In this document: positions 442 through 29,595 of the stretch, piece after piece
How the letters are laid out: every line of letters starts with the position of its first letter
How positions within the stretch are numbered: position 1 is the first letter of the stretch
Assembly (NCBI GenBank): GCA_019348335.1
Contig: JAHWJR010000006.1
Location: 1 to 32,216, forward strand
Direction: 5' to 3'
DNA from: Actinomycetota bacterium
GTDB taxonomy: Bacteria; Actinomycetota; Acidimicrobiia; Acidimicrobiales; CADCSY01
DNA length: 32,216 nucleotides
Notes under the pieces: generated by a model
The model's input: the letters and a program-made list of their open reading frames with translations, nothing else
What the model was told of the DNA's origin: nothing
Database searches by the model: none
Made by a program: the position numbers and the translations under genes

Positions 442-1308
442 TCAGGCGGCCCACTCGCCGGCCCGCAACCGGCTGATGCGCTCCTCGGTCGGCGGGTGCG
501 TCCGAAAGAGGTTGGCGAACTGGGCCCGACGGCCGGTCAGCGGGTTGACGATGTAGGCCTGGGCCTGAGCCGGCTGCACGTCCATGGGGATGGCCTGCAC
601 GCCCCGCTCCATCTTCTGGAGGGCCCGGGCGAGGGGCTCGCCCGACCCGACGAGGCGAGCGCCGCTGCGGTCGGCCTCGAACTCCCGGCTCCGGCTCAGC
701 GCCGCCTGGAGCAGGCCGGCGGCCAGCGGCGCCAGCAGCGCGGTGGCGATCAGGGCCAAGGGGTTCTGATCGCGGTCGCGCCCGCCCCCGCCGAAGATGG
801 CGGCGAAGCGGGCCATGAAGGCCAGGTAGGTGATGGCGGTGGCGATGGCGGCCGCAACCGAGCCGATGAGGATGTCGCGGTTGCCGACGTGGCTGATCTC
901 GTGGGCCAGCACGCCCCGCAACTCTTCCCAGTCGCAGATCTCGAGGATGCCCCTCGTCACTGCCACGGCGGCGTGGTGGGGATTGCGCCCGGTGGCGAAG
1001 GCGTTGGGCTGGCGGTCCGGAGTCACGTAGAGCTTGGGCATGGGCATGCCCGCCGCCTGGGTGAGCTCGCGCATGATGGCGAAGTACTGCGGCATCTCCG
1101 CCTCCGACGCCGGCACCGCCCGGGCCGCCTTGATGGCGAGCTTGTCGGAGAACCAGTAGGAGGTCCCCACCATGACCAGGCTCACCCCGAGCATGACGGT
1201 GGCGCCGACGCCGCCCTTGACGGCGCCCCCGATCACCACCAGCAGGCCGGTCAGCCCGGCCAGCAGGACGAAGGTCTTCGCGGTGTTCTTGCTCAACATC
1301 GGTGCCAT
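442..1308 (-). CDS. htpX: Zinc metalloprotease HtpX (peptidase M48)
   Basis: Carries the [10 protein letters not shown] (HExxH) motif, N-terminal TM helices ([17 protein letters not shown]) and overall HtpX-like sequence. The track ORF starts at 1416 but its first 36 residues are Arg/Gly/Pro-rich junk. I chose the internal ATG at 1308 (MAPMLSKNT...). The ATG at 1299 is an alternative, with AGGAG 9 nt upstream. Confidence 0.85.
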
Positions 1309-1382
1309 CTCCTGGCGCCCGCGGGCGGGGCGTCCACTGGGCAACGATACCGGTGCTCGGCCACGCCCCGGGGTGCCGTGCC

Positions 1383-1412
1383 TTGACTTTTCGAGTCCTC
1401 GAAAAGTAGGTT
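1383..1412 (+). promoter_or_regulatory. Putative hppA promoter with a perfect 22-bp palindromic operator in the spacer
   Basis: TTGACT (1383-1388) and TAGGTT (1407-1412, fits TANNNT) are separated by 18 nt. ACTTTTCGAG-TC-CTCGAAAAGT (1386-1407) is a perfect inverted repeat filling the spacer. AAGGAGG lies about 11 nt upstream of the hppA ATG at 1494. The site is also about 80 nt upstream of the divergent htpX. Confidence 0.35.
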
Positions 1413-1493
1413 TCATCGCCTTCCTGACCGCCTCGGCAGCCAGGACAACCCCCGAAACCCCCCAGGAACACCAAGAAGGAGGCAGCGGTCCCG

Positions 1494-3965
<2,472 letters not shown>

Positions 3966-4046: not shown

Positions 4047-6014
4047 TCAGTCGTCCTGGGGGGCGGCCTCCGCCCGCCGGCGGATCTCGTCGACCACCGA
4101 GGCGTCGGCCAGCGTGGTGGTGTCGCCCAGGTCGCGTCCGTCGGCCACGTCCCGCAGGAGACGGCGCATGATCTTGCCGCTGCGGGTCTTGGGCAGGTCG
4201 TCGGTGAAGATCACGGTCCGGGGCCGGGCAGTGGGCCCGATCTTGGTGGCGACATGGGCCCGCAGCTCCTGACCCAGCTCGTCACCGGGCGTCTGGTCCC
4301 CCTTGCAGGTGACGAAGGCCACGATGCGCTGACCGGTGACCTCGTCCTTGGCCCCCACCACCGCCGCCTCGGCCACGGCGGCGTGGGCCACCAGGGCCGA
4401 CTCCACCTCGGTGGTCGACACGCGGTGGCCGGAGATGTTCATGACGTCGTCGACCCGGCCCAGCAGCCAGAAGTAGCCGTCGTCGTCGACACGGGCGCCG
4501 TCGCCGGCGAAGTACCGACCCTCGAAACGGCTCCAGTACGTGTCGTGGTAGCGCTGGGGGTCGCCGTAGATGCCCCGCAGCATCGACGGCCAGGGCCGGG
4601 TCAGGGTGAGGTAGCCACCGCCCCGCTCGACCGGCTGGCCCCGGTCGTCGACGACCTCGGCGGCGATGCCCGGGAGGGGGAAGGTGGCCGAGCCGGGCTT
4701 GGTCGTGGTGGCGCCGGGCAGGGGCGAGATCATGATGGCGCCGGTCTCGGTCTGCCACCACGTGTCGACCACCGGGCAGCGGTCGCCGCCGATGTGGCGG
4801 CGGTACCACATCCACGCCTCGGGGTTGATGGGCTCGCCCACGCTGCCCAGCACCCGCAGCGACGACAGGTCGTGGGAGGCGGGCTCGGTCGTGCCCCACT
4901 TCATGAAGGTGCGGATGGCGGTGGGCGCGGTGTAGAGGATGGTGACCTTGTAGCGCTCGACGATGTCCCACCACCGGTCGCGCCCGGGGTGGTCCGGGCT
5001 TCCCTCGTACATGACCGAGGTGGCCCCGTTGACCAGGGGCCCGTAGACGATGTAGCTGTGGCCGGTCACCCAGCCGATGTCGGCGGCGCACCAGTACACG
5101 TCGGTGTCGGCGTGGAGGTCGAAGACGTACTTGTGGGTGAAGGCGGCTTGGGTCAGGTAGCCGCCGGTGGTGTGCATGATCCCCTTGGGACTGGCCGTGG
5201 TGCCCGAGGTGTAGAGCAGGTAGAGCAGGTCCTCGGCCTCCATGACCTCGGCGGCGCACTCGGTCGACGCCCCGGCCATGACGTCGTGGTACCAGTGGTC
5301 CCGCCCGGCAGCCATGGCCACCTCGTCACCGGTGCGGCGCACCACCACCACGTGCTCGATGGAGGGCGTGTCCTCCAGGGCGGCGTCGGCGCTGGCCTTC
5401 AGCGGCACCGCCTTGCCCCGCCGCCACCCGCCGTCGGCGGTGATCAGCACCTTGGCCTGGGCATCGACGATCCGGCCCCGCAACGACTCGGCGGAGAAGC
5501 CCCCGAAGACCACCGAGTGGGCGGCGCCCACCCGGGCGCAGGCCAGCATGGCCACGGGGAGCTCGGGGATCATCGGCATGTAGATGGCCACGCGGTCGCC
5601 CTTGGCCACCCCGAGGTCGCGCAGCACGTTGGCGAAGCGGCACACCTCGGCGTGGAGCTCGCGGTAGGTGATGGTGCGGGTGTCGCCCGGCTCGCCCTCC
5701 CAGTGGAAGGCCACCTTGTCGCCTCGCCCGGCCTCGACGTGACGGTCGAGGCAGTTCTCGGAGGCGTTGAGCTGGCCGCCGACGAACCACCGGGCGTAGG
5801 GCAGGTCCCACTCCAGGACCGTGTCCCACTGCCTTCGCCACGAGAGCAGGTCGGCGGCCTGGCGGGCCCAGAAGCCCTCGTGGTCCCGCGCCGCCTCGTC
5901 GTGGAGCTCGCTCCCCCGGACCAGGGCGGAGGCCCGGAACTCCTCGCTCGGCGGGAACGAGCGGTCCTCCAGGCCGTAGACCTCGATGGCAGGGTTCTCC
6001 GTCGGCTCGGTCAT
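4047..6014 (-). CDS. acs: Acetyl-CoA synthetase (AMP-forming)
   Basis: [15 protein letters not shown]..., then [41 protein letters not shown] and [16 protein letters not shown]. Length is 655 aa. Only the C-terminal part of the 1152-aa track ORF 4047..7505 is real; the ATG at 6014 is in frame with it. Confidence 0.95.
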
Positions 6015-6091
6015 GGCGCGAGAGTACCGCCGGGGCCCTGCTCGTTCCGCTGGCTGGGCGGCGGCGGCCCGGGGCCGGCGCCGGCTACCGG

Positions 6092-7537
6092 CTACCGGCG
6101 GGTGAGCAGCTGGTCGGCGGGGGCGAAGTCGTCGGTGAGAGCACGGGCGCCGGCGACGAAGGCGTCGACGTCCTCGCCGGTGAGCACCACGCCGTCCTCG
6201 GGCGGGATGTCGTCCGGCGTGAGGGCGAGCGGGGCGGCGGAGGCCACCAGCACGTGGTTGGCGGGGCCGCTGCTCGCGCCTGGAGGCGGAGCGATGACCG
6301 CCACGTTGGCGAACACCTCGGCGAGGGTGGCGGTCTCGGCCCGGACCAGCCGGCGCTCGCCGCCGTCGATGACGTTGACCAGGTAGATCCCCTCCGGGCG
6401 CAGCGCCCGGGCCAGCTCCTCGGCCACCTCCACGGTGGCCAGGTGCCAGGGCACCGACAGGCTCCCGAAGGCGTCGCCGACGGCCACGTCGTAGGAGTCG
6501 GCGGCCAGTCGAGCCAGGGCGGTGCGGGCGTCGCCCACCTCGACGCGCAGCCCGGGCCCCTGTTCCAGCCCGAGTTGCTCCTCGGCCAGCGCCACCAGAG
6601 CAGCGTCGAGCTCGAGCACCAGGCTGGTCGAGCCGGGTCGGGTGGCGGCCAGGTACCGGGGGAAGCTGAAGCCGCCGCCTCCGAGGTGGAGGGCGTCGAC
6701 GGGCCGGGCCGGCGGCACCTCGGCGGCCAGGGCGGCGGCGAACAGCCGCACATAGCGGAACTCGAGGTGGGTGGGGTCGTCGAGATCGACGTAGCTGTGC
6801 CGCAGGTTGTCGAGCAGCAGCACCCGCCCGGAGGGACGGGCCGGGTCGGCCTGCACCTGCACGCAGTAGTAGGTGGTGTGCTCCTGGCAGGGCCCGGGGA
6901 CGGCGGCCGCCACCCCGCCCAGCGCCAAGGTCCCCGCCGCCACCCCGCCCAGGGGCCGGTGGGGGCCGCTGCGCCACCACAGCACCAGGCCGGCGCCGAC
7001 CAGGGCGGCGCCCAGGCCGATCACCAACGGCCGGGTGGGCACGGCGGCCACGAGCACGAAGCCGGTCACGAAGGTGCCCACCAGCGCACCGGCGGTGCCG
7101 GCTGCCGAGAGCCCGCCCACCACCGAGCCGGTCTCGTCCAGGCTGGCCAGGCGCAGCTTGGCCGCCATGGGCGCCACCGCGCTGAGCACGGCGGCCGGGG
7201 CGAAGAAGGCGCCGGCGGCCAGGATCACGACGGCTGCCGGGCCACCGCCGGCCACAGTCGGGCCCACCGCCGTCACCACCGGGAGCGATGCCAGCGCCAG
7301 GGCGCCGCCGGCCACGACCGTGGGGCCGAGCAGCCGGCGGGGGTCGCGACGGTCCGCGAGACGCCCGCCGGCGGCGCTGCCCAGGGCGATGCCGGCCAGC
7401 ACGGTGCCGATGACCCCGGTGAAGGTCTCGATCGACACGCCCACGTAGGGCGCCACCAGCCGGCCGGCCAGGATCTCCAGCACCAGCACCGCCGCCGAGG
7501 TGCAAAAGACCAGCGTGGCCGCCGCCCGGGTGGTCAT
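6092..7537 (-). CDS. Fused polytopic membrane domain / spermidine synthase-like protein
   Basis: Starts [27 protein letters not shown]... The N-terminal half has multiple hydrophobic helices. The C-terminal half has a class I methyltransferase/spermidine-synthase-like fold ([45 protein letters not shown]). The ATG at 7537 is in frame with track ORF 6092..8158. Confidence 0.8.
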
Positions 7538-8731: not shown

Positions 8732-10234
8732 CTACGGGAGGGCGCCGAACAACGCCACGTCGCCGAGCCGGGCGGCGAGGTTGGGAAAGAACCCGAACGC
8801 CACGGTGGCCACCGCGCAGAGGGCAAGCGACGCGGTCAGCGCCGCCGGCACCTGCACCCGGGTGGTGTCGCCGTCGGGCACGGGGTCCATGAACATCTGC
8901 CGGGCCACCGAGGCGTAGTAGAAGAGCGCGATCACCGAGTTCACCGCGGCGACCACGGCCAGGGCGACGGCGGCGCCCGTGCCGGCGTCGAGCAGTGACT
9001 TGAACACGACGAACTTTGCGTACCACCCCCCCAGGGGCGGGATGCCGGCGAGGGCGAACAAGAAGACGGCCATCAACACGGCCAGCCCCGGGGCGTAGTC
9101 GAACAGGCCCCCGTAGGAGCCGATCTCGCCTGATCGGGTCTTGCGGGCCACGGCCATGACGACGGCGAAGGCGCCCAGGTTCATGGCCGCGTAGATGATC
9201 AGGTAGGTCACCACCGCCTCGGTGGCGTTGGCGATGCCGCCCCGCTCAGCGGGGATCGAGGCGGCCACGGCCAACGGCGCCAGCATGAACCCGGCCTGGG
9301 CCACCGAGGAGTAGGCCAACAGGCGCACGATGTTGGTCTGGCGCAGGGCGATGAGGTTGCCCACCGTCATGGTCAGGGCTGCGAGCACCCAGAACAACGG
9401 CGCCCACACGTCGTCCTGGCCGAGGAAGGCGATGAACACCAGCTGGAGCAGGGCGACGAAGCCGGCGGCCTTGGACGCCACCGACAAGAAGGCGGTGATC
9501 GGCGTGGGGGCACCCTGGTACGTGTCGGGCGCCCAGGTGTGGAAGGGCACCGCCGAGACCTTGAAGCCGAAGCCCACCACCACGAAGACGATGCCGACGG
9601 TCACCACCGGCACGGTCGACGAACCCCCTGCCAACGCATCGCCGATCTCGCTGAGCACGGTGGACCCGGTGACGCCGAACACCAGCGACATCCCGTAGAG
9701 CATCACCGCCGAGGCGAACACCCCGAGCAGGTAGTACTTGAGCGACGCCTCGTTGCCCCGCAGGTCGCGCTTGCGCCAGCCGGCCAGCAGGTAGGCCGGG
9801 ATGGAGAGCAGCTCGAGGGCCACGAAGATGCTGATCAGGTCGCGAGCCGAGGCCATCACCGTCATCCCCAGCAACGACGAGAGCAGCAGGAAGTAGTACT
9901 CGCCCTCGTAGTAGTCGCCCTCGGCCACGTAGTCGGTGCTGATGAGCACGGTCACGTAGCCGGCGACGAGGAACAGGCCCTTGAGGACCAGGGCGAAGTC
10001 GTCGACGACGTAGGCGCCGTCGAACAGGCTGCGGTCGCCGCCGGCGACGGCCAGGGTCAGCACCGGCACCAGCGAGGCCAGCAGCCCGATGCCGGCGACG
10101 GTCGAGGTGGCCCAGCGGCCCCGCTCCTCGAACACCAGGTCGACGAAGAGCAGCACCACCAGCACCAGCACCAGGACGATCTCGGGCGCGAAGGCGTGGA
10201 AGTCGACCGAGGGAGAGCGGAACAGCGTCTCCAC
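8732..10234 (-). CDS. nuoN: NADH-quinone oxidoreductase subunit N
   Basis: A 500-aa polytopic protein with the antiporter-like motif FKVSAVPFHTWAPDTYQGAPTPITAFLSVASKAAGF. It sits last in the nuo order, 4 nt after the nuoM stop. Confidence 0.95.
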   Translation of the reverse strand: METLFRSPSVDFHAFAPEIVLVLVLVVLLFVDLVFEERGRWATSTVAGIGLLASLVPVLTLAVAGGDRSLFDGAYVVDDFALVLKGLFLVAGYVTVLISTDYVAEGDYYEGEYYFLLLSSLLGMTVMASARDLISIFVALELLSIPAYLLAGWRKRDLRGNEASLKYYLLGVFASAVMLYGMSLVFGVTGSTVLSEIGDALAGGSSTVPVVTVGIVFVVVGFGFKVSAVPFHTWAPDTYQGAPTPITAFLSVASKAAGFVALLQLVFIAFLGQDDVWAPLFWVLAALTMTVGNLIALRQTNIVRLLAYSSVAQAGFMLAPLAVAASIPAERGGIANATEAVVTYLIIYAAMNLGAFAVVMAVARKTRSGEIGSYGGLFDYAPGLAVLMAVFLFALAGIPPLGGWYAKFVVFKSLLDAGTGAAVALAVVAAVNSVIALFYYASVARQMFMDPVPDGDTTRVQVPAALTASLALCAVATVAFGFFPNLAARLGDVALFGALP

Positions 10235-18685: not shown

Positions 18686-19172
18686 TGGGCTCCCCTCTCC
18701 AGCGCTCGGACATGTCCTCGTTGCGGATGCGCTCCTGGAGCAGCACGATGCCCTCCAGCAACGCCTCCGGGCGAGGCGGGCAGCCGGGAACGTAGACGTC
18801 GACGGGCACGATCTGGTCGACCCCCTTGGTGACCGAGTAGGAGTCCCAATAGGGGCCGCCGCAGTTGGCGCAGCTGCCCATGGAGATCACGTACTTGGGT
18901 TCGGGCATCTGCTCGTAGAGCCGGCGGATGGCCGGGGCCATCTTGTCGGTCACCGTGCCCGAGATCACCACCAGGTCGGCTTGGCGGGGGCTGACGGGAA
19001 AGGGGATGACGCCCAGGCGCATGACGTCGTAGCGGGGGGAGCCGAACGTCGCGCCCATCTCGATGGCGCAGCAGGCGAGGCCCCACTGGTAGACCCACAG
19101 CGAGTAGCTGCGGCTGAGGTTGAGCAGATGGCTGAGAGGCTTGGGTATCTTCGCCCGTTCGACTAGACCCAC
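18672..19172 (-). CDS. nuoB: NADH-quinone oxidoreductase subunit B
   Basis: [25 protein letters not shown] and [11 protein letters not shown] (ligands of cluster N2). I chose the GTG at 19172 ([10 protein letters not shown]...), which overlaps the nuoA end by 10 nt and is in frame with track ORF 18672..19442. Confidence 0.9.
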
Positions 19173-19528
19173 CGCAGGACTCCCTTCCGCCAGGCGTACA
19201 CCAGACCGAGGGCGAGTATGACGATGAAGATGCCCATCTCCACCAAGCCGAACAGGCCGTAGCTCTCCAGCCGCAGGGCCCACGGGAAGATGAACACCGC
19301 CTCCACGTCGAACAGCACGAAGAGCAGGGCGAAGATGTAATAGCGAACCTGGCTCTGACCGAACCCGGGGCCCACGGGGTCGACGCCACTCTCGTAGGCG
19401 ATCGACTTCTGGGCGGTGGGACGGGAGGGCCGGATCAGCCACCCGGCGCCCAGCATGAGGGCGACCAGCAGGCCCGCAGCTCCGGCGAAGACGGCCACCG
19501 TGAGGTAGGCACGCAGGAACTCGGACAC
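19163..19528 (-). CDS. nuoA: NADH-quinone oxidoreductase subunit A
   Basis: 121 aa with three TM helices: YESGVDPVG...[23 protein letters not shown]. It has a GTG start and is the first gene of the operon. Confidence 0.9.
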
Positions 19529-19596: not shown

Positions 19597-20142
19597 GTGC
19601 CCCCGGCCGCACCCAACGCCACCGACCTGGGCGGCCTGGTGGTGCCCGACGCCCGGACCGGTGAGCCCGTCGACCTCGGCGCCACGCCCGCCTTCGGCGT
19701 GCTGACGATCATCCGCCACCGCTACTGACTGCCCTGCCAGCAGCACCTGGTCGAGGTGCGGAACCGCCGGGAAGCGCTCGAGGCACTCGGGGCCACGGCG
19801 GTGGCCGTGGGCTTCAGCCCGCCCGACGCCCTGGCCCACCTGGCCGACCACCTCGAGTGGCCCTGGCCCTTCCTGGCCGACACCGAGCGGACGGTCTACG
19901 CCCGGCTGGGACTGCCCCGCGCCTCGCTGCGGGACGTCTACTCCACCGGGACGATGCAGCGGTACCGGCAGGCCGCGGCCGCCGGCGAGCCCGTCCACGC
20001 CCCGGTCGAGGACGCTCGCCAGCTGGGGGGCGACGCCGTGGTGCGGGCCGGGCGGGTGGTGCGGCTGTTCCGGCCGGCAACCCCCGACGACCGCCCGCCG
20101 GTGGACGTCCTCGTCGGCGCCGTGGCCGAGGCCGCCCGGTAG
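19597..20142 (+). CDS. Thioredoxin-fold AhpC/TSA (PRXL2-like) redoxin with an in-frame TGA at the first Cys of CxxC: candidate selenoprotein, or a pseudogene
   Basis: Track ORF 19756..20142 continues in the same frame upstream through one TGA (19726-19728) to the GTG at 19597, the first start codon after the stop at 19501. Own translation: (M)PPAAPNATDLGGLVVPDARTGEPVDLGATPAFGVLTIIRHRY[TGA]LPCQQHLVEVRNRREALEALGATAVAVGFSPP...WPWPFLADTERTVYARLGL... The family motif is xRHxGCxxC, so the TGA falls on the first Cys. Confidence 0.5.
19743..19759 (+). promoter_or_regulatory. Short hairpin downstream of the in-frame TGA (possible bacterial SECIS apex)
   Basis: GCACC (19743-19747), loop UGGUCGA, then GGUGC (19755-19759). 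The loop starts about 20 nt after the UGA and contains GGU. The stem is only 5 bp plus one further C-G pair beyond a mismatch. Confidence 0.2.
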
Positions 20143-24584: not shown

Positions 24585-26114
24585 TTAGGGGGCGCTCAAC
24601 AGGACGGGAACGGCGTCGCGGGCGAAGTCGACGACGGGTGACGGGAGTATCCCCACGACGATGGTGAAGGCCACGGCCACGCCCAGGGCCAGAGCGGCGC
24701 CGGGCGGCACTCGCACGGCCGGTCTGGTGACGGCTTCGGCTCCCTCGGTCTCGTCGCCCATGTACATGGCGACGGTGATGCGCAGGTAGACGAAGGCGGC
24801 GACCACGGCCGACAGCATGGCGATCAGGGCCAAGGCGTAGCTGTCGGCCTCCACGGCGGCGCCGATCACGTAGAACTTGGCCAGGAACCCGGAGGTCAGC
24901 GGCACCCCGGCCTGGGCCAGCAGCAGCACGGTGAAGGCCAGCGCCAGGAGCGGTCGCCGGCGCGACAGGCCCCGGTAGGCGGACAGGCCGTGATCGGCGT
25001 CACCCCGGCCCCCGACCAGGGTGGCCACCCCGAAGCTGCCCACCACCATGAACGTGTAGGCCAACAGGTAGAACAGGGCGCCGGCGATGCCTCGGTCGCT
25101 GGCCGCCTCGGCGCCCACGAGGATGAAGCCGGCGTGGCTGATGGAGCTGTAGGCCAGCATCCGCTTCACGTCGCTCTGGACGACGGCCAGGAACGAGCCC
25201 ACGAGCAGGCTGAGCACGGCCAGCCCCCACATGAGGGGCCGCCAGTCGAGGCGGTAGACGTCGAAGGTCGACACGAACACCCGCAGCAGGGCGGCGAAGC
25301 CGGCCGCCTTGGAGGCTGACGCCATGAAGGCGGTGACCGGGGTGGGCGCTCCCTGGTAGACGTCGGGCGTCCAGACGTGGAAGGGCACGGCGGCCACCTT
25401 GAAGCCCAGCCCCACCAGCAGCAGGGCGAACCCGGCCAGCAGCAGGCCGTTGGAGGCCAGCACGTTGCCGCTCAGGAAGCCGGCGATGGCCCCGAAGTTG
25501 GTGGACCCGGTGGCGCCGTACACCAGGGCGATGCCGTAGAGCAGGAAGGCCGACGAGAACGAGCCCAGCACGAAGTACTTGATGGCCGACTCCTGCGACT
25601 CGAGGCGTCGCAGGTGGAGCCCGGCCATGACGTAGAGGGCGATGGAGAGCGTCTCGAGACCGAGGAAGACCACGATCAGGTCGTTGGCCATGGCCATCAC
25701 CACGCCGCCGGTGCCCGACAGCAGCATGAGCACGTAGAGCTCGGGACCGTCGAGGCCCTCCCGGCGCAGGTAGTCGTCGGCCAGGAGTGCGCCGAGGGCG
25801 ATGGCGGCGGTGATGGTCACGGCGAAGAAGACGCTGAAGCCGTCGATGGTGATGGCGCCGCCGATGGCGGTGAACGGGCCTCGGCCAGGGTCGGTCACCC
25901 GCTGCCAGAGCAACGCCGAGCACGCCACCGCCAGCGCCGCGGTCACCACGGTGAACAGGGCGTAGAAGCCCCGCGGGGGCCGGCTGCGGGCCAGGGCGGC
26001 GGCGGTGAGCAACACGAGGGCTCCGCCCACCAGCACCAGCAGGGGGGAGACGGCGAACCACTCGATCTCGGGGGTGGCGATGGGCTCGATCTGGGCGATG
26101 ACCGCCGGCGTCAT
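24585..26114 (-). CDS. nuoN: Second NuoN-like antiporter subunit (orphan nuoLMN set)
   Basis: 509 aa, with FKVAAVPFHVWTPDVYQGAPTPVTAFMASASKAAGF. Its ATG overlaps the preceding gene's stop (ATGA at 26111-26114). Confidence 0.9.
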   Translation of the reverse strand: MTPAVIAQIEPIATPEIEWFAVSPLLVLVGGALVLLTAAALARSRPPRGFYALFTVVTAALAVACSALLWQRVTDPGRGPFTAIGGAITIDGFSVFFAVTITAAIALGALLADDYLRREGLDGPELYVLMLLSGTGGVVMAMANDLIVVFLGLETLSIALYVMAGLHLRRLESQESAIKYFVLGSFSSAFLLYGIALVYGATGSTNFGAIAGFLSGNVLASNGLLLAGFALLLVGLGFKVAAVPFHVWTPDVYQGAPTPVTAFMASASKAAGFAALLRVFVSTFDVYRLDWRPLMWGLAVLSLLVGSFLAVVQSDVKRMLAYSSISHAGFILVGAEAASDRGIAGALFYLLAYTFMVVGSFGVATLVGGRGDADHGLSAYRGLSRRRPLLALAFTVLLLAQAGVPLTSGFLAKFYVIGAAVEADSYALALIAMLSAVVAAFVYLRITVAMYMGDETEGAEAVTRPAVRVPPGAALALGVAVAFTIVVGILPSPVVDFARDAVPVLLSAP

Positions 26115-27646
26115 CGTTCGCCCTCCGTCGCCGCCACCTCGGGCTGGCTGAAGTCGGAGCTGGCCTCGACGTGGGCGATCAGGCGGTCGACGGCGGGCTC
26201 GATGCGCTCGAGCACCGGCTTGGGGTACACGCCCAGGAACACGATGGCCGCCAGCAACGGCGCCATGATCAGGCGCTCACGCCGGTCCATGTCCGGGGTC
26301 CCGGCGTTGGCCTCGTCGGGAGCGCCGTGGAACACCCGCTGGTAGGCCCACAGCAGGTACACCGCGGCGAGGATGACGCCCACCGTGGCCACCACCGCCC
26401 ACCACCGTCGGGTGGGGAAGCTGCCGAGGAGGATGAGGAACTCACCCACGAAGCCGTTGAGCCCGGGCAGGCCGATGGAGCTCAGCATCACCACGGTGAA
26501 CACCCCGGCCAGCACCGGCGCTGCCTTCTGCAGCCCCTTCAGCTCGGCGATCTCCCGCGTGTGGCGGCGCTCGTAGATCATGCCCACCAGGAGGAAGAGG
26601 GCACCGGTGGAGATGCCGTGGTTGACCATCTGGATCACCCCGCCCTGGAGCCCCTGGGTGGTGAAGGCGAAGGTGCCGAGCACGATGAAGCCGAGGTGGG
26701 CCACCGACGAGTAGGCCACCAGGCGCTTGAGGTCGCGCTGCATGGCCGCCACCACGGCGCCGTAGATGATGCCGATCACTCCGAGCGTGACGAGGAAGGG
26801 GGCGAAGTACGCCGCCGCCTCGGGGAACAGGTAGAGCCCGAAGCGGAGGAACCCGTAGGTGCCCAGCTTCAACATGACACCGGCCAGGATCACCGAGCCG
26901 GCGGTGGGGGCCTGGGTGTGGGCGTCCGGCAGCCAGGTGTGGAGCGGGAACAGCGGCACCTTCACGGCGAAGGCCACGGCGAAGCCGAGGAACAGCCACC
27001 GGGCGGTGGTCTGGGCGATGCTGCCCTGGGCCTCGGCGATGGTGACCAGGTCGAAGGTCAGCTCCCCGGTGGCCTGCTGGTGCAGGAACGCCAGCGCCAC
27101 GATCCCCACCAGCATGAAGGCCGAGCCGGCCATGGTGAACAGGAAGAACTTGAGGGCGGCGTAGACGCGGTCGCCGTAGCCCCAGCCGCCGATCAGGAAG
27201 TACATCGGCACCAGCACGATCTCGAACATCACGAAGAACAAGAAGAGGTCGAGCGAGAGGAAGACCCCGATGCACCCCGCCTCCAGCAGCAGGAGCCAGG
27301 CCAGGTAGGGCTTGGGATCGTGGTGGGGCCGGACCCCGATCACGGCGATGGGGTACAGCAGCCCGGTGAGCACCACCAGGAACAAGGAGATGCCGTCGAC
27401 GCCCAGGTTCCAGGCGATGCCGAAGTCGGCGATCCAGGTGTACTTCTCACCCAGCTGGAACCCGGCGTCGTTCCCGTCGAAGACCACGAGCAGCCACACG
27501 CTCAGCGCGGCCACCACCAGCGTGGTGGCGACGCCCACGCCCCGCACGAGTGCAGCGTTGCTCCGGGGCACCAGGGCCACGGCCAGCGCACCCAGCACCG
27601 GCACGACGATCAGGGCGGTGAGCAGGGGAAAGCCGAGGTCGTTCAC
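26111..27646 (-). CDS. nuoM: Second NuoM-like antiporter subunit (orphan nuoLMN set)
   Basis: FFVMFEIVLVPMYFLIGGWGYG, KVPLFPLHTWLPDAHTQAPTAGSVILAGVMLKLGTYGF and VAHLGFIVLG. The GTG at 27646 overlaps the nuoL-like stop (GTGA) and is in frame with track ORF 26111..29143. Confidence 0.9.
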   Translation of the reverse strand: MNDLGFPLLTALIVVPVLGALAVALVPRSNAALVRGVGVATTLVVAALSVWLLVVFDGNDAGFQLGEKYTWIADFGIAWNLGVDGISLFLVVLTGLLYPIAVIGVRPHHDPKPYLAWLLLLEAGCIGVFLSLDLFLFFVMFEIVLVPMYFLIGGWGYGDRVYAALKFFLFTMAGSAFMLVGIVALAFLHQQATGELTFDLVTIAEAQGSIAQTTARWLFLGFAVAFAVKVPLFPLHTWLPDAHTQAPTAGSVILAGVMLKLGTYGFLRFGLYLFPEAAAYFAPFLVTLGVIGIIYGAVVAAMQRDLKRLVAYSSVAHLGFIVLGTFAFTTQGLQGGVIQMVNHGISTGALFLLVGMIYERRHTREIAELKGLQKAAPVLAGVFTVVMLSSIGLPGLNGFVGEFLILLGSFPTRRWWAVVATVGVILAAVYLLWAYQRVFHGAPDEANAGTPDMDRRERLIMAPLLAAIVFLGVYPKPVLERIEPAVDRLIAHVEASSDFSQPEVAATEGER

Positions 27647-29595
27647 GCCACCCCGGTCCGGAGGAGGAAGAAGGCCAGCAGCAGCACGGCGCCACCGCCC
27701 ATGAACAAGGCGTAGTTGCGCACGTAGCCGGTCTGGGTGAGGCGCAACCGGGACCCGCCCCCGCGGACCAGGGTGGCGATGCCGTTGACGGCGCCGTCGA
27801 TCCCCCGCCCGTCGAGGACCCGCGAGGTGAAGTTGGCGAAGGCCCGCCCGGGACCCCCGAAGAACCCGGCCAGGGCCTGGTCGAACCCCCACGCCCGGCG
27901 CAGCAGCTCCGGCTCGAAGCGGTCGGCGGGTTGCGTGCTGCGCAGGTAGATGGCCCGGGCGGCGAGGATCCCGATCACCACACCGACGCCGGTCACGGCG
28001 GCGAGGCTGAGCAGGATGCCGGCGGGGATGTCGAGCTCGTGCAGGCGGTCCTCGAACACCGGCTCGAGGAAGTGCTCGAGGGTCAGCACCCCGGGCAGGT
28101 TGAGCAGGCCCCCGCCGGCGGCCAGCACGGCCAGCACCACCAGGGGCACGGTCATGGTGGGCGGCGACTCGTGGGGCGTGGCCGGAGCGGCCTGGGCGGC
28201 GGCGGGCTCGTGCTCGGGCTCGGCCAGGGCCTCCTCCGAGGTTGCGCCGGCGTGCGCCTCCTGCCAGCGGGGCGGGCCGAAGAAGACCAGGAAGACCTGG
28301 CGGCTCATGTAGTAGGCGGTGAGCAGGGCGGTGATGACGCCCACCAACCACAGGAGCCGGTTGGAGTCCCAGGCGGCGGCGAGGATCTCGTCTTTGGACC
28401 AGAAGCCGCTGAACGGCGGAATGCCGGCGATGGCCAGCCAGCCGACGATGAACGTACCGGCGGTGATGGGCATGAGCTTGCGCAGGCCGCCCATGCGGCG
28501 CATGTCCTGCTCGTCGTGGAGGCCGTGGATGACCGAGCCGGCTCCGAGGAACAGCAGGGCCTTGAAGAAGGCGTGGGTGATCATGTGGAAGATGGCGGCC
28601 ACGTAGGCGCCCACCCCGATGGCCAGGAACATGTAGCCGAGCTGCGACACCGTCGAGTAGGCCAGCACCTTCTTGATGTCGCGCTGGGCCACCGCGCAGG
28701 TGGCGGCGAACAGGGCGGTGGCGGCGCCCATCACCGAGATGACGGTCAGGGCGGCGGGGGCGGCGTCGAGCAGGGGGTTCACCCTGGCCATCAGGTACAC
28801 GCCGGCGGTCACCATGGTGGCGGCGTGGATGAGCGCCGAGACCGGCGTCGGGCCCTCCATGGCGTCGGGTAGCCACACGTACAGCGGGAGCTGGGCCGAC
28901 TTGCCGGCCGCCCCCACGAACAGCAGCAGGGCGATGCCGAGGGCAGTGGCCTCGGGCAGGGCGCCGGCGTTCTCCAGGAAGCCCTCCTCGCCGGCGTAGG
29001 TGAGCGTTCCCAGCGAGGCGAAGGTCAGGAAGATGGCGACCATGAAGCCCCAGTCGCCCACCCGGTTGGTGACGAAGGCCTTCTTGCCGGCCACCGCCGC
29101 CGAGTTCCGCTCGAACCAGAACGACACCAGAAGGTAGGAGCACGCCCCCACGCCCTCCCAGCCGAGGAAGGTGATGAGCAGGTTGTCACCCAGCACCAGC
29201 ATGAGCATGGAGAAGGCGAACAGGTTGAGGTACAGGAAGAAGGTGTGGAAGCGGGGGTCGCCGTGCATGTAGCCGATGGAGTAGAGGTGGATCAGCGCCC
29301 CCACCCCGGTGACGAACAGCACCATGGCCATCGACAGCGGGTCGACCAGGAAGCCCACGTCGACCGAGAAGCTCCCCGACGGCAGCCACTCGAAGACGGT
29401 GAACACGAACTGGCGGTGGTGCTCGTCCTCGCCCAGAAGCCCGGCGAAGGTCACCAGCCCGGCCACGAACGACCCGGTCACCATGGCGGTGGCCAGCCAT
29501 CCCGCCGCCGGCTCGCCCAGCTTTCGCCCCGCCGCCAGGAGGATGAGGAACCCGGCCAGGGGCAGGGCGGGAATCAACCAGACGGCGCTCAGCAT
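27643..29595 (-). CDS. nuoL: Second NuoL-like antiporter subunit (orphan nuoLMN set)
   Basis: 650 aa, with GWEGVGACSYLLVSFWF and KSAQLPLYVWLPDAMEGPTPVSALIHAATMVTAGVYL. The C-terminal lateral-helix-like segment plus a final TM helix is retained (...IDGAVNGIATLVRGGGSRLRLTQTGYVRNYALFMGGGAVLLLAFF). Confidence 0.9.
   Translation of the reverse strand: MLSAVWLIPALPLAGFLILLAAGRKLGEPAAGWLATAMVTGSFVAGLVTFAGLLGEDEHHRQFVFTVFEWLPSGSFSVDVGFLVDPLSMAMVLFVTGVGALIHLYSIGYMHGDPRFHTFFLYLNLFAFSMLMLVLGDNLLITFLGWEGVGACSYLLVSFWFERNSAAVAGKKAFVTNRVGDWGFMVAIFLTFASLGTLTYAGEEGFLENAGALPEATALGIALLLFVGAAGKSAQLPLYVWLPDAMEGPTPVSALIHAATMVTAGVYLMARVNPLLDAAPAALTVISVMGAATALFAATCAVAQRDIKKVLAYSTVSQLGYMFLAIGVGAYVAAIFHMITHAFFKALLFLGAGSVIHGLHDEQDMRRMGGLRKLMPITAGTFIVGWLAIAGIPPFSGFWSKDEILAAAWDSNRLLWLVGVITALLTAYYMSRQVFLVFFGPPRWQEAHAGATSEEALAEPEHEPAAAQAAPATPHESPPTMTVPLVVLAVLAAGGGLLNLPGVLTLEHFLEPVFEDRLHELDIPAGILLSLAAVTGVGVVIGILAARAIYLRSTQPADRFEPELLRRAWGFDQALAGFFGGPGRAFANFTSRVLDGRGIDGAVNGIATLVRGGGSRLRLTQTGYVRNYALFMGGGAVLLLAFFLLRTGVA

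Follow-up and report, generated by a model that had tools for sequence, protein, structure and literature searches.

A conserved in-frame UGA at the active site of an actinobacterial PRXL2-like redoxin gene: a candidate UxxC selenoprotein with a downstream hairpin

A stretch of 32,216 nucleotides from an Actinomycetota bacterium of the order Acidimicrobiales (contig JAHWJR010000006.1 of assembly GCA_019348335.1; hereafter the window) carries, at positions 19597-20142 of its forward strand, a gene for a thioredoxin-fold redoxin of the AhpC/TSA kind whose reading frame is crossed by one TGA codon. The original prediction, made from the letters of the window and without database searches, proposed that this TGA falls on the first redox position of a CxxC motif and encodes selenocysteine (Sec), which would make the product a UxxC selenoprotein. 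That proposal gains support from the conservation of the TGA among relatives, from its alignment with Cys in homologous proteins, from coding constraint on the surrounding sequence, and from a covarying hairpin just downstream of the codon.

The redoxin gene and its interrupted reading frame

The frame in question runs from a GTG at 19597 to a TAG at 20140-20142 on the forward strand and spans 181 codons. Translation recovers the single internal stop that the original prediction had placed between these ends, a TGA at 19726-19728 in the context ...GVLTIIRHRY-stop-LPCQQHLVEV.... Gene callers report only a shorter open reading frame (ORF) in this region, which had already been suspected of being just a part of the protein and which proves to be the C-terminal ~70% of the full frame. 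This shorter ORF is an annotation artefact of the unrecognized Sec codon. The features of the gene are listed here by position and strand:

19597 to 20142, forward: putative full-length selenoprotein gene, 181 codons plus TAG, with the predicted Sec at codon 44; AhpC-TSA_2 / PRXL2-like thioredoxin-fold redoxin
19726 to 19728, forward: UGA predicted to be read as selenocysteine (U44), the N-terminal nucleophile of U-L-P-C; the TGA is conserved, and some homologues have Cys (TGC)
19735 to 19737, forward: TGC for Cys47, the presumed resolving cysteine of U-x-x-C
19743 to 19759, forward: hairpin of the selenocysteine insertion sequence (SECIS) type within the coding region, recognized from an RNAalifold consensus, covariation, and frozen third codon positions
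19756 to 20142, forward: ORF of 128 amino acids as called by gene callers, with its start at GTG 19756

Elsewhere in the window TGA behaves as an ordinary stop codon. It terminates at least 6 of the 15 other genes, which rules out a reassigned genetic code and means that any read-through at 19726 must be site-specific. There is no clear Shine-Dalgarno-like sequence ahead of the GTG at 19597, and thus the redoxin mRNA may be leaderless. Across the related loci described next, a start codon clusters 40-48 codons 5' of the UGA.

Relatives were surveyed at the nucleotide level by using tblastn on one genome per species (GTDB representatives). The 71 redoxin loci recovered in this way represent two classes of Actinomycetota, with members in Acidimicrobiales, Pseudonocardia, Actinomycetospora, Propionibacteriales, Geodermatophilaceae, Terrabacter, and Solirubrobacterales. 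Protein identities range from 35% to 98%, and in most loci the match crosses the stop. Two loci (L058 and L063) lack the N-terminal part, which leaves 69 that can be aligned at codon 44. This codon is TGA in 67 of them (hereafter the Sec forms), TGC in one (L071), and TAG in one (L057). The orthologous column therefore holds the same TGA in nearly every lineage, with Cys in the minority, and this excludes the recent nonsense mutation that the original prediction had named as its alternative. The 67 TGA lineages have diverged to about 35-50% protein identity. Position 47 is an invariant Cys in 67/67 Sec forms, such that the motif is UxxC throughout, and the nucleotide after the UGA is C in 63 of 66 distinct sequences.

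A search at the protein level returned more than 100 clusters at 52-98% identity, nearly all of them 125-140 amino acids long and covering the C-terminal ~70% of the query. The few full-length homologues (P0008, P0009, P0108, and P0109) read IRHRHCLPCQQHL, i.e. RHRH/N-C-[LI]PC. Because these proteins have Cys in the column of the stop, the TGA in the window corresponds to the first Cys of CxxC. The codon is likewise TGC in each of the Cys-form loci L071, L073, L074, and L075. Shortened annotations recur among close relatives: the identical 128-residue call is present in GCA_019348175.1, and in two loci the 43-residue N-terminal piece has been called as a separate orphan ORF without a Pfam match (L085:1234-1365 and L086:796-927), directly upstream of the shortened ORF of 128 or 124 residues, respectively.

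Some further observations concern the same codon. Two JGI metagenome proteins have another residue at the Sec/Cys position, namely Trp in P0113 (RHRH-W-LPC) and Arg in P0047 (RHRY-R-LPC). As read from the proteins alone, the codons TGG and CGA would each be one base away from TGA. Both look like decaying copies, given the long C-terminal extension of P0113 and the scrambled C-terminus of P0047. Certain genomes carry more than one copy of the gene. Two UGA redoxin paralogues, 94% and 64% identical to the window protein, occur in the metagenome-assembled genome (MAG) JAHWJI01 (L001 and L009), and Pseudonocardia nigra DSM 104088 has two UGA copies together with a third fragment without the N-terminal part (L040, L047, and L058).

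Codon patterns on either side of the UGA reveal protein-coding constraint that acts in a single frame. Upstream of the UGA, frame 0 stays open for at least 42 codons in 63/63 loci, compared with 20/66 and 53/66 for the other two frames. The GC content at third codon positions (GC3) is 0.88 in this frame, versus 0.77 and 0.50 in the others. Position 2 of the upstream codons is constrained and position 3 is free. For example, Arg is found at -4 in 66/67 Sec forms with an entropy of 1.59 bits at its third codon position, and the His at -3 is invariant among Sec forms. By the open frame, the codon-position pattern, and GC3, the 43 N-terminal codons are thus kept as coding sequence.

Profile searches were made with Cys placed at the stop position of the translation. 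PF13911 (AhpC-TSA_2) matches the full-length protein at 39.4 bits and the 128-residue part at 40.3 bits (cutoff 27), and PF00578 (AhpC-TSA, cutoff 26) scores 18 bits without the 43 N-terminal codons but 33.6 bits with them. The best NCBIfam model is NF040769, 'SelL-related redox protein', at 95.1 bits over residues 32-175; this lies under the curated cutoff of 120, and by its sequence score the redoxin appears to be related to this family but not a member of it. A PDB sequence search with the redoxin gave nothing significant. Structural comparison was more informative. An AlphaFold (AF2) model of the 57%-identical Cys homologue P0008 (pLDDT 94.4, pTM 0.89) has a thioredoxin fold in which a strand at 31-36 is followed by C42-L-P-C45 at the N-terminus of helix alpha-1 (43-54), the canonical arrangement of a thioredoxin-fold active site as far as the model can show it. 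The best PDB neighbor in a structure search is the human prostamide/prostaglandin F synthase PRXL2B (9usa and 9us9; TM 0.71/0.79, 23-25% identity, motif C44xxC47), in agreement with the PRXL2-like assignment made at the outset. BCP/PrxQ peroxiredoxins and ResA/TlpA-type thiol-disulfide oxidoreductases come next.

The motif R-H-R-Y-U-L-P-C is without the PxxxT/SxxC(U) peroxidatic motif of typical peroxiredoxins (Prx/BCP). When the redoxin is aligned with Mycobacterium tuberculosis BcpB, C47 falls on the peroxidatic Cys and U44 takes the Thr position of the Prx motif. These correspondences, together with the missing PxxxT, point to thioredoxin-like U/C-x-x-C chemistry.

The hairpin downstream of the UGA

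The hairpin at 19743-19759 has a stem of 6 base pairs (19743-19748 with 19754-19759, GCACCU/AGGUGC) and a loop of 5 nucleotides (19749-19753, GGUCG). It begins 14 nucleotides 3' of the UGA, and when counted from the U of the UGA its loop starts at +24, which places the loop G and U at +25 and +26. An RNAalifold consensus of the 67 in-register sequences is the same 6-base-pair stem and 5-nucleotide loop. All 6/6 pairs are intact in 65/67 Sec forms, and 94.8% of cells are paired, a share that drops to 28-53% if the 3' strand of the stem is shifted by 1-3 columns. The loop conforms to N-G-U-N-N, with a G that never varies and a U found in 65 of 66 distinct sequences.

Two further patterns indicate that the RNA itself is conserved. 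Third codon positions within the stem (+18, +30, and +33) are invariant or nearly so, whereas third positions just downstream vary freely. Furthermore, the pair +21:+31 changes from C:G to U:A in 5 loci with zero half-changed intermediates. In 5/5 of these loci the switch couples a silent His change (CAC to CAU) to replacement of Val GUG by Met AUG, and it has at least three independent origins as judged from the nearest relatives of the loci concerned.

The natural Cys forms provide a useful comparison. In L071, L073, L074, and L075, 4-5 of the 6 pairs remain and the loop is without GU, because Val at +8 has given way to Cys, Gly, or (in two of them) Ala. Hairpin energies in the Cys forms are -0.7 to -5.1 kcal/mol, versus a Sec-form mean of -7.7 kcal/mol. 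A covariance model built from Sec forms gives scores of 62-71 bits for Sec forms, 51 bits for the TAG variant, and 22-41 bits for Cys forms. The original prediction had described a small hairpin at this place as compatible with SECIS geometry and had called it weak. The hairpin is present as described, conserved, covarying, and degraded in Cys forms. The reservation was fair for one sequence, since folding of this region of the window by itself is no better than folding of shuffles (z = 0.59), but the comparative data change that assessment.

The TAG variant, from Geodermatophilus maliterrae WL48A (L057:10106-10108), keeps an intact hairpin with 6/6 pairs and a GGUCC loop, and probably reflects a sequencing error or a very recent inactivation in which TGA became TAG. 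When run on the window, the covariance model also matched positions 6845-6893 on the reverse strand (20.6 bits, rough E 1e-4). This match was rejected as a chance event, as it has no preceding TGA and no hairpin. It encodes a PCQEH...VQVQ-like string and lies in the 5' extension of an acetyl-CoA-synthetase-like ORF (4047-7505, reverse strand), whose Pfam domains start only at residue 533, with an open extension of ~520 codons ahead of them.

Decoding of the UGA

On comparative sequence evidence, the UGA at 19726-19728 is very probably decoded as selenocysteine and the gene is a genuine selenoprotein gene. Several observations count against this conclusion and must be weighed with it. Neither the window nor ~1.05 Mb of flanking loci yielded a selA, selB, selD, or tRNA-Sec gene, and the window is devoid of tRNA genes and of Rfam matches at gathering thresholds. 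Sec machinery has so far been placed in related organisms, not in the redoxin-bearing genomes. SelA and SelB are encoded on contigs of the MAGs JAHWKA and JAHWJP, which belong to the same series as the redoxin-bearing JAHWJZ, JAHWJI, and JAHWKL but are different MAGs, and the SelA-bearing ones are not among the set with identical NuoD. The GTG start at 19597 is itself a predicted one. The hairpin does not stand out in single-sequence folding, as noted above, and no Rfam SECIS family matches it at E up to 10, though a formate dehydrogenase (FDH) gene used as a control, fdhA, does find a match. Finally, the hairpin is short, and part of its conservation could stem from the conserved H-L-V-x-V peptide that it encodes.

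The distribution of the machinery in the phylum is nevertheless broad. In Actinomycetospora chiangmaiensis, SelA, SelB, and SelD are expressed and the FDHs are selenium-dependent enzymes that contain Sec (PMC7176365); three of the UGA redoxin loci belong to Actinomycetospora. Operons of sel genes with tRNA-Sec occur in related MAGs and on actinobacterial replicons, and SelA is very widespread in Actinomycetota, with matches dominated by Streptomyces, Microbispora, Amycolatopsis, and Mycobacterium. A search of PLSDB for the redoxin on large actinobacterial plasmids that carry selDAB gave no match. Among the GC-rich flanks, ARAGORN reported two long tRNAs, at L027:840-934 (95 nucleotides, tRNA-Thr GGT) and L058:522-618 (97 nucleotides, tRNA-Asp GTC). 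These have the length of tRNA-Sec and not its anticodon, and may be false positives.

Three other explanations for the interrupted frame can be considered. Because TGC and TGA are one base apart, a nonsense mutation from TGC/TGT to TGA might simply have inactivated a Cys redoxin and left a gene that is dead or dying. Such a history would suit the truncated ORF that is all the pipelines see, and the site does mutate, as is evident from the TAG in L057 and from W or R in two metagenome proteins. It is difficult to reconcile with a TGA that is kept in 67 species-level lineages at the protein divergence given above, with coding constraint on both halves of the gene and no other lesion, and with a hairpin that covaries. 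Recent horizontal copies of one dead allele are excluded by the 35-98% spread of identities and by the diverse neighborhoods of the gene. The original prediction had argued against an old pseudogene from the absence of other lesions upstream of the TGA, and the relatives bear this out in that they show no pattern of decay. Conservation of the TGA and coding constraint together rule out a recent nonsense mutation or a pseudogene for practical purposes, and we assign this explanation next to no probability. A second explanation takes the two called ORFs at face value: the UGA would be a true stop, and the gene would give a 43-residue peptide and a 128-residue C-terminal domain restarted at GTG 19756, which may reassemble. 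Exactly these two ORFs are called in L085 and L086, and the GTG lies only 27 nucleotides 3' of the stop. However, the split would cut the thioredoxin fold inside its active-site motif, and a restart at 19756 would skip LPCQQHLVE and leave C47 untranslated, even though LPC-Q-x-H-L-V is among the most conserved segments of the protein. The GTG is a conserved Val codon inside the hairpin, is replaced by ATG (Met) in some loci, and is no start codon in others, whereas Cys homologues are contiguous single proteins that form one folded domain. Production of two polypeptides is therefore judged highly improbable.

Read-through that does not depend on a SECIS requires closer attention. In this scheme the UGA is leaky: a near-cognate tRNA reads it and inserts Trp, Cys, or Arg, with the hairpin acting only as a generic stimulator of read-through or as a pause site. 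UGA followed by C is reputed to be a weak termination context, and this is the context of 63 of the 66 distinct sequences. The location of the Sec machinery outside the redoxin-bearing genomes, the failure of Rfam SECIS models to match, and the Trp at the Sec position of P0113 would all fit as well. Yet the codon stands in place of the catalytic Cys of CxxC, and with Trp or Arg there the chemistry would be lost. If Cys were wanted then TGC would be the cheaper solution, but UGA is found in 67/69 loci. The hairpin also has the features of a SelB-binding element (a small loop, an invariant G-U, and fixed spacing), it resembles an fdhA SECIS from the same phylum, and GU is exactly what the Cys forms lose. 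Moreover, Sec machinery is common in these orders. Overall, only a slim chance is left for SECIS-independent read-through.

If the UGA is instead recoded as selenocysteine during translation, then 19597-20142 would be one gene for a thioredoxin-fold redoxin of ~19 kDa with the active site U44-L-P-C47. From the features described above we infer SelB binding, selenium incorporation, a catalytic cycle, and the nature of the substrate and reductant, as follows. The apical loop, in which U comes after the invariant G, would serve as the binding site for SelB-GTP-Sec-tRNA(Sec), and this complex would deliver Sec to the ribosomal A site in place of release factor 2. The selenolate of U44, at the N-terminus of helix alpha-1, could then attack an oxidized substrate such as a disulfide, sulfenate, or peroxide, and C47 would resolve the intermediate to give a selenenylsulfide. 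A thiol system would re-reduce the selenenylsulfide, for which the likely partner is an FAD-dependent pyridine-nucleotide-disulfide oxidoreductase that is encoded next door in many relatives.

Genomic neighborhood and comparison with known systems

Two genes flank the redoxin gene in the window:

19163 to 19528, reverse: nuoA, an ORF and the first gene of the divergent nuoA-N (complex I) operon; Pfam Oxidored_q4 is found at the syntenic position in L072 and L085-L088
20154 to 21776, forward: AMP-binding acyl-CoA ligase-like gene (Pfam AMP-binding and AMP-binding_C), starting 11 nucleotides past the redoxin stop

The gap of 68 nucleotides between nuoA and position 19597 is a shared divergent promoter region. 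The acyl-CoA ligase-like gene is probably cotranscribed with the redoxin gene and not part of the recoding element; it lies directly 3' of the redoxin gene in 15 loci, and also in L072, L087, and L088. The lineage of the window represents an Acidimicrobiales population, and identical synteny is found on the 1.16-Mb contig JAUJNM010000001.1. Other parts of the window hold the rest of the nuoA-N operon (about 8.7-19.5 kb), a second set of complex I / Mrp antiporter-like subunits with Proton_antipo_M and Proton_antipo_N domains (24585-29595, reverse strand) downstream of an ABC transporter, an H+-pyrophosphatase (1494-3965, forward strand), and an M48 peptidase (442-1416, reverse strand).

Elsewhere in the clade the redoxin gene has other neighbors. 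Within 8 kb of it, 22 loci encode a full-length class-I FAD pyridine-nucleotide-disulfide oxidoreductase (MerA/Lpd-like, redox motif CTFVGC), and in ~14 of them the two genes are immediately adjacent, across several orders and in both orientations. From gene adjacency only, this enzyme, whose gene lies outside the window, would be the most plausible reductant. The other recurrent neighbors are a TIGR04283-family glycosyltransferase (25 loci), a fusion of an Rv1681-like radical SAM protein with a metallophosphoesterase (18 loci), a second FAD oxidoreductase, and a VTT/DedA protein. The redoxin gene of Pseudonocardiales and Solirubrobacterales lies within 8 kb of the TIGR04283 glycosyltransferase, the Rv1681-like fusion, and FAD oxidoreductases (L023, L025, L027, L030, L034, L035, L039, L040, L044, L045, L051, L061, and L064-L070). 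The match of the glycosyltransferase to TIGR04283, an 'arsenosugar biosynthesis' model, reaches 210 bits against a curated cutoff of 182. A similar gene set (DUF2064/TIGR04282-like, GT2, Rv1681-like radical SAM, and an AhpD/CMD-family protein) lies directly 5' of selD-selA-selB on a Miltoncostaea oceani replicon (L078:786-5366), and CMD, radical SAM, and DUF2064 genes are likewise neighbors at the Cys-form locus L075. The TIGR04283, radical SAM, and FAD neighbors may constitute a selenium-linked pathway.

The mechanism of recoding proposed here is textbook. What deserves attention is the breadth of the family, the dominance of Sec over Cys, and the systematic misannotation. We tentatively suggest, as a possibility somewhat short of even, that the redoxin represents an uncatalogued, Sec-dominated family of UxxC PRXL2-type selenoproteins in aerobic soil Actinomycetota, ranging over Acidimicrobiales, Pseudonocardiales, Propionibacteriales, Geodermatophilales, and Solirubrobacterales, that every pipeline annotates as a truncated 'hypothetical' or 'AhpC/TSA' protein. 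Should this be true, actinobacterial selenoproteomes would extend beyond formate dehydrogenase, and obligate aerobes would possess a Sec-based thiol/selenol redox relay that often has a neighboring FAD disulfide reductase as its partner and that lies, in some lineages, beside the TIGR04283 glycosyltransferase / Rv1681-like radical SAM cluster. This would run against the view, restated in a 2026 review, that aerobic bacteria rarely retain selenoproteins (PMC13188914). The ratio of UGA to Cys is 67:1 among species representatives of these aerobic soil lineages. Abundant soil Actinomycetota would, on this showing, require selenium and use Sec in a redox function. Recognition of the Sec codon also corrects more than 100 protein clusters and ~67 species representatives whose redoxin is annotated as an ORF of 125-140 residues without its active site.

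Actinobacterial selenoproteins are as a rule identified with FDH. In mycobacteria, FDH is reported to be the sole selenoprotein (PMC13449736), and our literature search found no link between non-FDH selenoproteins and the taxa listed above. Two reviews catalogue a pfam13911/cd02970 'AhpC/TSA family protein' selenoprotein whose motif is UxxS and whose source is a marine deltaproteobacterial symbiont (PMC9312934, PMC13188914). It shares with the redoxin its domain family and the placement of Sec at the N-terminal motif position. The redoxin differs in its UxxC motif, found in all 67 Sec forms, and in its aerobic soil Actinomycetota hosts, a distinction drawn by description. The same reviews treat proteins with the same domain and a different Sec motif as different subfamilies (PMC9312934, PMC13188914); under this rule the redoxin, being UxxC and not UxxS, would be a separate subfamily. 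The catalogues also list a pfam00578 'Prx-like thiol:disulfide oxidoreductase' (UxxC/UxxU) and a PF08534 'Redoxin family' UxxC protein, and do not mention Actinobacteria in connection with these families (PMC9312934, PMC13188914). The Prx-like thiol:disulfide oxidoreductase selenoproteins, known from Geobacter and Syntrophus among others, resemble the redoxin in their UxxC motif, PF00578 match, and bacterial SECIS right after the UGA. They come from anaerobic Deltaproteobacteria and Clostridia (PMC1794560), whereas the best model for the redoxin is PF13911, and this comparison is likewise one of descriptions only.

Similarities extend to eukaryotic proteins. With the eukaryotic SelU/PRXL2 proteins the redoxin shares Pfam AhpC-TSA_2, the fold, and the place of the motif (C44xxC47 in PRXL2B, U44xxC47 in the redoxin). 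SelU1-3 we take to be PRXL2A/B/C. Identity is only about 23-25%, and the redoxin is bacterial and has a hairpin within its ORF, in contrast to the SECIS in the 3' untranslated region of the eukaryotic genes. The SelU family has both Sec and Cys forms (PMC3316567), as does the redoxin. Selenoprotein L of fish and invertebrates, to which NF040769 relates, similarly has a thioredoxin fold with Sec in a CxxC-type motif, but it contains two Sec residues in a UxxU motif (PMC3316567) and the redoxin contains one. Judging from sequence, and with the nearest families compared by description only, the redoxin would best be viewed as a subfamily of thioredoxin-fold UxxC selenoproteins with an in-ORF bacterial SECIS.

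For the hairpin, the closest comparison comes from the phylum itself. The fdhA control (L080:8980-12276), from an actinobacterial MAG, is split by a TGA at 9547-9549 into ORFs of 189 and 876 residues and adjoins a selD-tRNASec-selA-selB cluster, with the tRNA-Sec at L080:5897-5991. It is thus another misannotated selenoprotein gene. Its SECIS has a stem of 7 base pairs and a 5-nucleotide GGUCU loop from +22, and matches RF01989 (SECIS_3) at 35.6 bits, which is under the gathering score of 63. The protein is unrelated to the redoxin, whose hairpin has 6 base pairs with no bulge and no lower helix detected. The two elements are alike in having a 5-nucleotide loop with GU at loop positions 2-3 that starts 22-24 nucleotides from the UGA. 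With only 17 nucleotides and natural Cys-form controls, the redoxin hairpin would be a compact and well-sampled actinobacterial SECIS that could improve SECIS models for high-GC genomes.

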